NCBI GenBank assembly: GCA_003971905.1
Contig: RSEE01000062.1
Span: 248,001 to 312,000, forward strand
Length of the DNA stretch: 64,000 nucleotides
Direction: 5' to 3'
DNA from: Moniliella sp. 'wahieum'
Taxonomy: Eukaryota
Below are positions 56,529 to 60,442 of this stretch, one piece after another; positions within the stretch are counted from its first letter, which is position 1, and every line of letters starts with the position of its first letter. Both the position numbers and the translations under genes were made by a program. A model generated the notes under the pieces. That model was given only the letters and a program-made list of their open reading frames with translations, ran no database searches and was not told where the DNA came from.

Positions 56529-58519
56529 TCATGTTGTAACTACAAAGATACGGTGAAATATGAGTGGTGTCCGGGGGATGAGAGAATGTTGGCAATCGAC
56601 AGAGAGACGGACGCATAGGTCATGAAGCAACGTTTTCTCTTGGTTAAGCTTGAGGAGCATGGGCCCCCTCCATCTTTCCCTTCCGCCGGGGTGGGGCGGC
56701 GAAGACTTTTTACTTCCTCGCCGAGGGGTAGCGCCCTTTTTGGAAGTCGCAGTCCGCGCAGGCTTGGCCTCAGACGCTGGGAGGTTCAGGGAAGACAGAT
56801 TCCGGGAGACCGTCCAGGGTATAGTGAACGACCTTAGCCGCTCGCTTTTCCATTTCTTCTCCTCTTCAAACCGCTGGCGTAGCTCCGGGGTGACAATGTG
56901 AACCTGGCACCAGGATGCATCCACCATGGCCCAGGGCCCACCTGGGCGAGGTCCATTGCGATTCTCCACATATGCGTTGGGACCACTGGTCGTACCGGAT
57001 TCGAGATCTTCCTTCGGAGGAAGCAACCCTTGATATTTGACTTTCTGAAGCGGTTTGGGCTCCTTTGACTTTAGGGCCTCCTTTTTGTGACCAGTCGTCA
57101 TCTCCACGGCATCGCGATGGGCAGAGCGTCTAACAGAATCAACGAGCTGTTTGGTTTGTGGATCGTAGCCCTGAGTCAGGACGTCTCCTAGGACTGAATG
57201 ATCACCGCTTAGAGGCATGTTGCGATGCTTCGTCAACGCTGCCTCCAGACGCTGAAGCATGAGCTTGCGGGCGCGAGGACCCGAGGCCTGGTCCAAGCCC
57301 TTCCGGACAAGCCGTCGCCTCTCTTGATTCTGGGCTTCTTCACTCGTCGGGGTCCACTTGGATCTCAAGATTTTGCGAACAGCCATCTGCGACACGTGAA
57401 ACGCTTGTGACAAATGCTCCACATCAAACATTTCGGGATCAGCTTTGTTAAGCATACGCATCCCATCTTGCGTTGGCCGACTGAGCATTCTCGTTGGACG
57501 CCAAGCTTTGCCTGCTACCTCTTTGGCATCCTTCTCTCCGTCGTACATCTTGCCATCGCCCTTGAAATAGTGTCCCACTGGATTTTTAAACATGTTGTCC
57601 AGAGCATTGATCATGTCTCCTCGGTCCGTAGAGACGGGCGTGAGAGATTGGTTAAACTCCTCCGAGAAAGCCTGGGCGGTTTGAGGGGTGTAGTATGGCA
57701 AGCTGTGCGCAAACGCGTGTGAGTGAGTATCTAGAAGGTCAAGAACAAAGATGCAGAATTGAAATACGCACATATGGCCAACCTGTTGAGCCAAGGTGTG
57801 AAGGTCATTGTTGTCGGAGGAGGAACGAGTTTCGACAATGACCACCCAGTCTGTCTTTGTGGGCTTGCCAGACGAGAGAGAGGGCGTATGAATAAAGCGA
57901 ATGGAAGGGCGGGCGGCAGAGGAGGAAGCGGGAGAAGACGCCAAAGATGAGCCATTTGGAGGTGGGAGGGACAGGGGCGCACGAGATGAGAGGCCGGGCC
58001 AGAAAGTAGGATGTCGTACAAGTCCACCAGCTGGCTTGGGAGTACGTATTGCAACGCTTCGGTACCGGGTATGTCCATACCGCTCAAGATGGAAGGGCGG
58101 GGTACCTTATCGTACACGCTGCCATCGCGAAACTCAGAAGCAGCAACGGGCAGGATATCTTCGTTGGGAACGGGGGTGCCCTCCATGGCATCCTGGGTAA
58201 ACCAAGGCAGCTCGTCGGATACAGCCATCGCATCGGAGTGGTGTCGAAACCAGGCAGAGACTGCTCGGCGCTAGGTTCCACCACCAGCTCCTGGCCGGTG
58301 GGAGAAGATTCGATGAACCAGGGCAGCTCGTCGAGCGTCTGAGGGACAGGAGAGGACGAAGCATACTGAGTGCCGACCGAGCGGGGCGCACGCGAAGACC
58401 CAGGCGCAGCCGCGTGGGCAGAGACATGGATTGTGCGTGCCGCGGCCAGCATCCTCGATCCAGGGCTGAGGCGAGGGTGCAGCGCGCCAGCGGCGGGACA
58501 GCGAGCAAGACGCGGCCAT
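56529..58519 (-). CDS. Mitochondrial fusion protein: RsfS/Iojap (MALSU1/Atp25-N-like) domain interrupted by an Rrg9/neugrin domain; probable in-frame 69-nt intron 57703-57771; stop uncertain (56529-56650)
   Basis: Presequence-like MAASCSLSRRWRAAP; DELPWF x2; TDWVVIVETRSS...LHTLAQQV; WRPTRMLSRPTQDGMRMLNKADPEMFDVEHLSQAFHVSQMAVRKILRSKWTP; KYQGLL...WAMVDASWCQVHIVTPELRQRFEEEKKW. Confidence 0.8.
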
Positions 58520-58775: not shown

Positions 58776-60442
58776 ATGCGTTGTCTGGTGCGCCCGGTTG
58801 TCGGCCGTGTGTCGACCCTGAGCGCCAGTGTGGCCCATGCTCGTCGCGGGCTTGCCTCACTCGCGCCAGTTCCCGTCAGTGATCGCACCGACGACGGCGG
58901 GCGGCTTGAGATCCATGAGGCCTACCAGCCCTGGGGCCAGCTTCCCGATCCGCCCGTCATGCGCAACCATGCTCTGGTTGAGGCGCGCTTCAAGTGTTTC
59001 ATTCCGTTGCGTTCTCGTGTTCTGGCCGACGGTTCCCACCGTGTTGGAAAGCCTAACAAGACTCTTGTCGGTCTTGCCGACAACAAAATTTGGCCCTCGA
59101 GCCGCGAGTCTGGCACATACAACTTTGGTCACAAATTCCCGCTCCCGGGTCGAGCTCTGGTGCCTCGCGTGCGTCGTCTGGAGCGCAAGAGGATGATGCG
59201 TGCTGTTAAGGAAGCCAAGAAAGAGGCCCAACTGGCCTCTCGTCTGGGGCTCAAGACCCGGATCCAAACACCCTACGTTCGTGTCGATGGTGCTTTCAAG
59301 ACTTTCAAGCCCATCACGCCCGGTATTCGCCATACCCGTCTGCTGTACAACCCTTACCTCTTCCGTGGTGAGCCCGAATATGGCCTGACGGTTGCGCTGC
59401 GCAAGTCGGGTGGTCGTTCAGAAAATGGGCGGATCGCCACGCGTGGTATTGGTGGTGGCCACAAGCAACGTATTCGTCTCGTGGACTTTTCCCGTTGGGA
59501 GCCCGGTGTTCAGGACGTGCTTACCATCGAGTATGATCCTGGTCGTTCGTCCCACGTTGCACTGATTGAGAACCGGGAGACCAAGGTTCGTTCGTACATC
59601 GTTGCGGCCGATGGTCTTCGTGCTGGCGACACGGTTCGCTCTTACCGTCGCGACGGTGTTTCGACCTTCCGCAACCCCGAGATGGACAACACGCGTTTCA
59701 CTGAAGAGGAATTGCCAAGGCCCCGCTCGACCTGGGTATGTTCCGTATGCAGGCGTTGCGCCCGGGTAACTGTTTGCCTCTCTCGCTCATCCCTATCGGT
59801 ACCGAGATCCACAATGTGACCATTGCGGCCAAGGGCAAGGGTAAGCTCATTCGTTCTGCTGGTTCCTGCGGTCAGCTGGTGGGCTTTATGCACCGTAAAA
59901 CTGGTGCCCGCCCTGGCCCGCTCATGGGTGAGTTGACGGAGAAAGGTACGCCTATCCCGCGTCCCGAGCTGCTGCCTGGTAATGCGGAGGAGAACGCTCT
60001 CTTGCCCCGCGAGAAGCAACTGGAGAAGCTCTTGGGTGGTAAGGAAGCTGCCCTTGCTATGGCAGACAAGCCTACGGCCACCCACGCAGTCATTAAGATG
60101 CAGAGTGGTGAAGTGCGTATGGTGCCGGTCAATGGTGCGGCAACGATTGGCCGTGTGAGCAACACCAACTGGCAGCACCGCAAGCTGGGTAAGGCTGGTC
60201 GTGCCCGTTGGCTCGGCCGTCGTCCTAAGGTTCGTGGTGTGGCTATGAACCACTGTGACCACCCGAACGGTGGTGGCCGCGGTAAATCCAAGGGTAACCA
60301 CCAGTCCAAGGATCGGTGGGGCAACCTGGCCCGTGGTGGCCGTACTCGTCGCCCTACCGACCGGGGCGGTAACATTATGGTCCTTCGCCAGAGGCCACGC
60401 AAGGGCGGCCACCGTGGTAAGCCCAAGTACCTCAACGGCTAA
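58776..60442 (+). CDS. RML2: Mitochondrial ribosomal protein uL2m (one frameshift near 59720)
   Basis: Presequence MRCLVRPVVGRVSTLS; KTFKPITPGIRH, KSGGRSENGRIATRGIGGGHKQRIRLVDF, IEYDPGRSSHVAL, GNCLPL..IPIGTEIHNV, LGKAGRARWLGRRPKVRGVAMNHCDHPNGGGRGKSKG. Confidence 0.97.

Follow-up and report, generated by a model that had tools for sequence, protein, structure and literature searches.

Bacterial RsfS and human MALSU1, which together with plant iojap are grouped in the Pfam family RsfS (PF02410), block the joining of ribosomal subunits. In Neurospora, the N-terminal part of Atp25 is described as binding uL14m and as blocking subunit joining likewise (PMC7560712). Yeast Rrg9 and mammalian neugrin (NGRN) belong to the Pfam family Neugrin (PF06413). 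We analyzed a stretch of 64,000 nucleotides (nt) from Moniliella sp. 'wahieum' (GenBank assembly GCA_003971905.1, contig RSEE01000062.1, positions 248,001 to 312,000; hereafter "the window", in which all positions below are counted), which has a G+C fraction of 0.53-0.68 and the appearance of fungal nuclear DNA. On its minus strand, a single frame at 56850-57911 encodes, in this order, an RsfS-like N-half, a Neugrin/Rrg9 core and an RsfS C-half, all within a main stop-to-stop open reading frame (ORF; 56529..58106) of 525 amino acids (aa). An original prediction, made from the letters of the window, had placed these three parts in one uninterrupted frame; the parts are in frame at the positions it gave, but this frame contains neither the start codon nor the RsfS helix alpha1 nor the C-terminal tail, which are encoded in different frames. 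We consider the locus best explained as one nested gene, nuclear and coding for a mitochondrial protein: a Neugrin/Rrg9 module would occupy the loop between helix alpha2 and strand beta3 of an RsfS-type domain, and the frame breaks of the window copy would most likely be insertions or deletions (indels) of the assembly. We give this explanation a probability of roughly 0.7.

The nested architecture is a conserved family feature of the Ustilaginomycotina (smut-related fungi) and not a peculiarity of the window. Searched exhaustively with phmmer, a set of 1.84 billion representatives yielded 1006 matches at E<=0.001; among the 150 of these that were listed, most cover the Neugrin core only, and the top group adds the C-half or the N-half. 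Hidden Markov models (HMMs) for the N-half (N), the Neugrin block (G) and the C-half (C), built from three column blocks of the family alignment A2, were applied to 191 collected proteins (individual relatives are cited below by P numbers). The parts occurred as N-G-C in 54 proteins, as G-C in 16, as N only in 2 and as G only, the usual form without RsfS parts, in 119, and their order was never altered. Fourteen of the 16 G-C sequences were inspected (all but P0002 and P0003); P0184-P0187 plainly start where alpha2 ends ("...LKHTRPP"), which is the position of an intron (Table 1), and we take the G-C group to be fragments from 3' exons. In Pfam scans of 25 relatives, RsfS scored above its cut-off in 22, always with profile positions 47-98 and always downstream of Neugrin, which was above its own cut-off in 16; the three proteins lacking RsfS were two N-terminal fragments and P0031. 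A profile search returned 55 proteins at E<=1e-5, 20 of which carry an organism name, from the genera Meira, Acaromyces, Tilletiaria, Sympodiomycopsis, Exobasidium, Microstroma, Malassezia, Tilletia, Ustilago, Sporisorium, Pseudozyma, Mycosarcoma (M. maydis, UMAG_04607), Melanopsichium, Moesziomyces, Kalmanozyma and Testicularia. Four of the named species were looked up in the taxonomy; each belongs to the Ustilaginomycotina, and two classes are represented. The remaining named genera we take to belong there too. Relatives without a further fusion partner are named "Required for respiratory growth protein 9" (Rrg9) in UniRef, and precomputed Pfam annotation lists PF06413 and PF02410 together on Ustilaginomycotina proteins.

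By sequence comparison, the C-half is clearly RsfS. When the family profile was searched against the PDB, it found the iojap-like protein 2id1 (E=5e-10), RsfS 9q40 (2e-8), E. coli RsfS (2e-4) and MALSU1 chains at E-values from 6e-4 (9hcg) to 6e-3. A bacterial reference set was assembled by a degenerate motif scan, in which 120 loci yielded 106 ORFs of 95-190 aa; all 30 of the 30 ORFs tested with Pfam were RsfS. Against this set, hhalign gave E=4.7e-15 (score 80) for the family C-half and E=9e-8 for the window C-half alone. A phmmer search of the PDB with the window protein returned nothing relevant, and a word-index search for homologues of the C-half among shorter proteins returned no candidate.

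The N-half of the family also aligned with the 106 bacterial RsfS ORFs in the correct register (hhalign score 27.1, P=4.2e-4), pairing PI..IHA...W.DWIVVVQVRS..G.V.RVA.EVG..LK with DIv.iDl.gkss.aD.mVIASG.S.R.v.AlAd.v...lK of RsfS. This score was reached by none of 150 column shuffles (mean 12.1, standard deviation 2.9, maximum 23.2), and the reversed alignment scored 14.5. With the columns of the insert removed, as the original prediction had proposed, the two halves formed one colinear alignment over RsfS positions 44-130 (E=8.9e-17), with a score of 103 compared with 80 for the C-half alone; the Neugrin block, run against bacterial RsfS as a control, gave 0.38. The two halves are joined precisely after the end of alpha2 (..lK..G) and before the "vEG" motif of beta3 (VrYEGL in the family). 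In a six-frame translation of the 64 kb, the bacterial RsfS HMM matched only the main ORF (E=0.0035), in two stretches that follow in order: HMM positions 55-65 on TDWVVIVETRS (aa 85-95) and positions 94-129 on the C-half (aa 388-423).

Predicted structures are consistent with one domain split in this way. An AlphaFold2 model of P0006 from Meira miltonrushii (411 aa; alignment of 54 rows) had a mean predicted local distance difference test score (pLDDT) of 74 and a predicted template modeling score (pTM) of 0.53, and 10-residue blocks reached pLDDT 90-97 in both halves. Its elements are alpha1 (residues 112-123), beta1 (147-151), beta2 (163-169), alpha2 (174-189), a set of helices (197-311), beta3 (345-347), beta4 (376-380), beta5 (384-389) and alpha3 (391-410). 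The model of the window ORF, in which the intron was read through and alpha1 was absent (mean pLDDT 69), has its elements in the same order: strands 45-49 and 63-68 and a helix from residue 75 in the N-half (pLDDT ~90), helices 186-198, 205-212, 216-224 and 231-272 in the insert, and strands 333-335, 368-372 and 376-381 with helices 383-394 in the C-half. The order common to the models is thus alpha1-beta1-beta2-alpha2-(helical insert)-beta3-beta4-beta5-alpha3, which places the RsfS elements in both flanking halves, and the insertion in the loop between alpha2 and beta3, as had been anticipated. In the ESM Atlas's own model of P0006, residues 105-196 had bacterial RsfS clusters as their nearest structural neighbors (TM 0.55 over 67 residues, and 0.52). 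Element order, hhalign and the Atlas match all point to a complete RsfS fold that includes the N-half.

Several results weigh against a complete split domain and would fit a neugrin protein to which no more than the C-terminal remnant of an RsfS domain has been joined, the N-region being an unrelated, lineage-specific segment that contributes to no complete, nested fold. In the window ORF, Pfam RsfS scored 17.1 bits with a cut-off of 21.6 (aa 345-419, profile positions 66-98 of 98) and the NCBIfam model TIGR00090 (rsfS) 13.2 with a cut-off of 56.9. Neither Pfam nor NCBIfam matched the N-half, Pfam also finding nothing in three N-terminal pieces, and in the PDB search with the family profile (HMMER) the N-half reached 0.5 bits with 3ups, in the correct register; in the relatives, too, Pfam and HMMER find RsfS at profile positions 47-98 only. 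Taken alone, then, the window protein gives a firm Neugrin core above the Pfam cut-off, an RsfS C-half that is suggestive but below its own cut-off, and no sign of the N-half. In hhalign, the window N-half alone scored 15.4, which is not significant, and the family aligned as a whole anchored solely on the C-half, with the N-part misplaced. The evidence from the models consists of element order and pLDDT, and Foldseek found 0 PDB matches at E<=0.001 for P0006 or the window model, probably because the insert breaks the alignment. Its first 11 ranks for P0006 were all MALSU1, RsfS or iojap chains, at weak, non-significant E-values of 0.09-0.32, and over both models the top RsfS/MALSU1 chains lay at 0.09-1; the ranking, though not significant, agrees with a split RsfS domain. 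A remnant is nonetheless hard to reconcile with an N-half that aligns in register with beta1-beta2-alpha2 of RsfS above every shuffle, that raises the score when joined to the C-half, and from which the bacterial HMM picks TDWVVIVETRS. Nor would it account for the fitting element order with pLDDT >90 in both halves, or for an N-half whose own structural neighbors are RsfS clusters. We regard a mere C-terminal remnant as very unlikely.

The insert belongs to Neugrin/Rrg9: Pfam Neugrin scored 36 bits in the window ORF (aa 204-338), above its curated cut-off of 24, and the three-helix core is present in the model. By ESM Atlas features, the nearest clusters to window aa 195-340 were Neugrin/Rrg9 (0.92), followed by MRP-L20 (0.82). 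No further copy of Neugrin/Rrg9 was found within the window. Neugrin/Rrg9, mL58 and mS22/mS45 are described as sharing one three-helix domain, with Rrg9 discussed as a paralogue (PMC7947838), and the distinction among them is therefore one of degree. The insert might thus be a structural ribosomal-protein domain of the mL58/mS22 type, which would make the protein a stable constituent of the mitoribosome, or the RsfS fold might have been repurposed. The shared domain is in keeping with this possibility, as are the MRP-L20 scores above the Pfam cut-off in three of the 25 relatives and the presence of mS109, mS45 and mL58 among the PDB profile matches and, for the insert, among the Foldseek matches of both models. 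In the window, however, MRP-L20 scored 18.6 bits, about half of the Neugrin score, and came second in the Atlas comparison, and a blocker of subunit joining would be hard to square with a permanent ribosomal protein. We therefore think it improbable that the insert is a ribosomal-protein domain and treat it as a Neugrin/Rrg9 module.

The window copy of the nested gene is interrupted, in comparison with its close relatives, by three 1-nt frame breaks (~58183-58246, ~57974-57980 and ~56847-56856). In addition, it departs from the family at putative uL14-contact sites. In Staphylococcus aureus, RsfS residues E70, W77, D81 and Y98 are reported to contact uL14 (PMC9503621). Among 52 aligned rows of the nested family, the equivalent of E70 is E in 50, those of W77 and D81 are W and D in all 52, and that of Y98 is Y in 46; the window has Q, W, D and F, so that two of the four differ (Q for E and F for Y). 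No uL14m gene was found within the window. Both the breaks and the substitutions speak against an intact gene and would be expected of a decaying pseudogene in which the three breaks are real mutations. Similar breaks, on the other hand, affect nearby genes: the gene for the mitochondrial ribosomal protein uL2m is shifted by 1 nt at ~59712, between Ribosomal_L2_N (Pfam, 77 bits) and Ribosomal_L2_C (137 bits), and an amino-acid transporter gene (Aa_trans) is broken at ~52870, where the Pfam profile runs on from positions 20-247 to positions 245-379 across a change of frame. Four of the breaks were read nucleotide by nucleotide, and at each of them a repeat of a single base (GG or AAA) looks one base short, as judged from the frames; the fifth, at ~58183-58246, was located from the reading frames. 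Five breaks in three genes make assembly indels more likely than a pseudogene. All three frames of the nested gene are, moreover, still open and conserved, and the Tyr position is also F in P0003 and L in P0002, so that the substitutions at the contact sites can be taken as traits of the clade. The breaks are, as far as the sequence allows, most likely assembly indels, and we consider a pseudogene unlikely.

Close relatives allowed the gene to be followed across the breaks (Table 1). The main frame contains no ATG upstream of the N-half, and the protein probably starts further upstream, because the N-terminal ORFs of the close relatives P0029 and P0046 do. The alignment of these two begins in frame A, passes into frame B (58246-57974) and enters the main frame from 57980, and no residues are lost, for which reason introns were rejected as the cause of the breaks; an intron at 58035-58105 was likewise rejected, since relatives read straight through it. 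Frame A offers a presequence-like start after the ATG at 58452 (MLAAARTIH...), and the residue composition of this presequence suggests that it targets the protein to mitochondria. With its positions 1-25, the family N-half HMM matches frame B at the predicted helix alpha1. At the other end, the tail in the shifted frame matches P0002 and P0003 (..HHSLDGLPDSVLPP); the uninterrupted frame instead continues to 56529.

The original prediction had also proposed a 69-nt intron that is in-frame and stop-free, and this was borne out: ORF fragments of relatives end (P0029 and P0046) or begin (P0184-P0187) at this position, and its 23 residues are missing from annotated full-length relatives. The position of the intron is conserved in the window, P0004, P0029, P0046 and P0184-P0187, exactly at the boundary between alpha2 and the insert, and might record the way in which the insertion came about.

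Two further features of the locus were observed. The DELPWF motif is located after the presequence and before the RsfS domain; the window clade (P0029 as well) has two copies of it, and most members of the family have a single one in the form PWF(L)QD. With uL2m arranged head to head, the two mitoribosome genes might be driven by one promoter in the interval between them.

Table 1. Positions of the parts of the nested gene and of its neighbor in the window.
Feature	Position	Strand	Remarks
Probable start codon and Arg/Ala-rich presequence MLAAARTIHVSAHAAAPGSSRAPRS	58350..58452 (ATG 58450-58452)	-	Frame A; residues 18-120 of P0029 align
DELPWF motif, two copies	58315-58332 (frame A); 58199-58216 (frame B)	-	Frame break between the copies
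RsfS helix alpha1 (predicted) LPSQLVDLYDILLSGPASHLV	57980..58042	-	Frame B; break to main frame at ~57974-57980
RsfS N-half	57774..57911	-	beta1 RPSIRFIH; beta2 TDWVVIVETRSS, 57819-57854; alpha2 DLHTLAQQVGH, 57774-57806
Intron, 69 nt, GTGCGT...CTCAC...CACAG	57703..57771	-	End of alpha2, boundary of N-half and insert
Neugrin/Rrg9 three-helix core WRPTRMLSR...LSQAFHVSQMAVRKILRSKWTP (WRPTRMLSR...KWTP)	57348-57503	-	Pfam PF06413
Long charged helix after the Neugrin core	57216-57341	-	Part of module 57216..57503
RsfS C-half, beta3 VKYQGLL	57021-57041	-	Part of C-half 56850..57041
RsfS C-half, beta4-beta5-alpha3 GPWAMVDASWCQVHIVTPELRQRFEEEKKW (GPWAMVD...EEEKKW)	56850-56939	-	After a loop
C-terminal tail VVHYTLDGLPESVFPEPPSV and stop (56768-56770)	56768..56856	-	Begins after ...KKWKSERL at the frame break
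Neighboring gene, mitochondrial ribosomal protein uL2m	58776..60442	+	Head to head; start codons ~320 bp apart

In the Ustilaginaceae (Ustilago, Sporisorium, Pseudozyma, Mycosarcoma maydis UMAG_04607 and others), the nested protein continues into a part related to asparaginyl-tRNA synthetase (AsnRS). These fused relatives (P0009, P0010, P0023 and P0166-P0183) are ~920-1180 aa long and contain an oligonucleotide-binding (OB) fold and a class II tRNA synthetase domain, annotated as mitochondrial AsnRS. The fusion is apparently a single open frame, because ORFs of 972-1063 aa on unannotated contigs continue in the same way. No AsnRS was found within the window. P0164 from Malassezia yamatoensis (433 aa) is named "asparagine--tRNA ligase", and Pfam shows only Neugrin and RsfS in it (N-G-C by our HMMs); the name was probably carried over from fused Ustilaginaceae models. 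The Ustilaginaceae protein recalls the composite precursor of Atp25, and raises the question of whether the nested protein is itself cut after import into pieces that act separately, in which case the fusion would say little about joint action. Atp25 is described as such a precursor (PMC7560712, citing Woellhaf 2016), and the AsnRS part, which continues the same ORF, is likely to be separated from the rest. Release of the Neugrin/Rrg9 insert, by contrast, would require the RsfS domain itself to be severed, and both boundaries of the insert lie inside one predicted fold, so that we judge separation of the nested parts to be highly improbable.

As a nested protein, the product would come from a single nuclear gene and, given its presequence, would be imported into mitochondria. 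There, the RsfS halves, ~245 residues apart in the window protein, are predicted to fold back into one alpha/beta domain. By analogy with its relatives, this domain may dock on the uL14m of a still immature large mitoribosomal subunit, on its intersubunit face, and, while docked, sterically block joining of the small subunit, as Atp25-N, RsfS and MALSU1 do. The inserted module, a loop's length away, could then contact ribosomal RNA (rRNA) of the large subunit or a neighboring factor, and anti-association and rRNA maturation would thereby be coupled on one particle. In line with the Rosetta-stone argument of the original prediction, the nesting suggests that two factors of mitoribosome assembly may act next to each other. 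Human NGRN and MALSU1 are both reported to co-purify with the GTPBP10-bound mitochondrial large subunit (PMC6144781), which is compatible with joint action and is not a demonstration of proximity.

More tentatively, the nesting could be viewed as a natural tether that holds Rrg9/neugrin within a loop's length of the uL14m-bound site. Free Rrg9 and NGRN, in yeast and humans, might then act at the intersubunit face beside Atp25 or MALSU1, on the same pre-large-subunit intermediate. Since Atp25 joins RsfS to an M-domain and the Ustilaginaceae version continues into AsnRS, fungi may repeatedly make mitochondrial RsfS only within a larger or interrupted precursor, perhaps as a safeguard against silencing cytosolic ribosomes before import. 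We offer this extension as possible, and as less probable than its converse.

The position of Rrg9/neugrin on the assembling mitochondrial large subunit is seen in no structure among the PDB matches, and nesting across a subphylum would give it a concrete and testable place next to uL14m. Ustilago maydis (UMAG_04607) is a tractable organism in which the nested protein could be studied. The original prediction called the fusion undescribed. The co-occurrence of PF06413 and PF02410 was already present in sequence databases, but we found no paper linking the two families: the literature searched contained no publication joining neugrin with RsfS, and, among the matches listed, none joining Rrg9 with RsfS, MALSU1, iojap, neugrin or C7orf30. 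The three publications that mention Rrg9 together with Atp25 appear to be yeast screens, and UMAG_04607 was found in no publication of the literature searched. What appears to be undescribed is the completeness of the RsfS domain and its division by the insert. Because standard domain searches recognize just one half of an interrupted domain, the nested proteins bear the name "Rrg9" or, mistakenly, "asparagine-tRNA ligase", and too little has been said of their RsfS character.

Compared with bacterial RsfS, plant iojap and human MALSU1, the nested family has the same order of secondary structure elements, an N-half that is colinear once the insert is removed, and a common C-half motif, (E)G...W.LVD.G..VVHVM....R..Y..E..W. 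It differs in that those proteins are uninterrupted, whereas the alpha2-beta3 loop of the nested family holds ~245 residues in the window and ~155 in P0006, including another domain. Where they have GD, the nested family has GW or SW, followed by C before the VHV strand.

The module in the loop resembles yeast Rrg9 and mammalian NGRN in having a core above the Pfam cut-off, in the UniRef name of the family and in its Atlas clusters; Rrg9 and NGRN are free-standing proteins, whereas the window module is flanked on both sides by RsfS halves. mL58 (MRP-L20) and the "A3T2" domain of mS22/mS45, as described in PMC7947838, belong to the same class of small helical domains and give weak Pfam, PDB and Foldseek matches; they score lower than Neugrin on the insert and are permanent ribosomal proteins.

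A parallel among fungal proteins is Atp25, described as an Rsf/MALSU1-like N-terminal part followed by a C-terminal M-domain (PMC7560712). A Pfam scan of the window ORF at E<=10 listed only Neugrin, MRP-L20, RsfS and Raf1_N, and thus no Atp25 M-domain (the stabilizer of ATP9 mRNA), whose absence had been correctly foreseen; there was also no Atp25 chain among the PDB sequence or fold matches, so that orthology with Atp25 is no more than possible. Swiss-Prot has an ATP25 entry for Ustilago maydis. Like the nested protein, Atp25 is a mitochondrial RsfS-type protein within a larger polypeptide, and by analogy the same role on uL14m of the pre-large subunit may be expected of both. In Atp25, however, the partner domain is appended to the RsfS domain, whereas in the nested family it appears to lie inside it.

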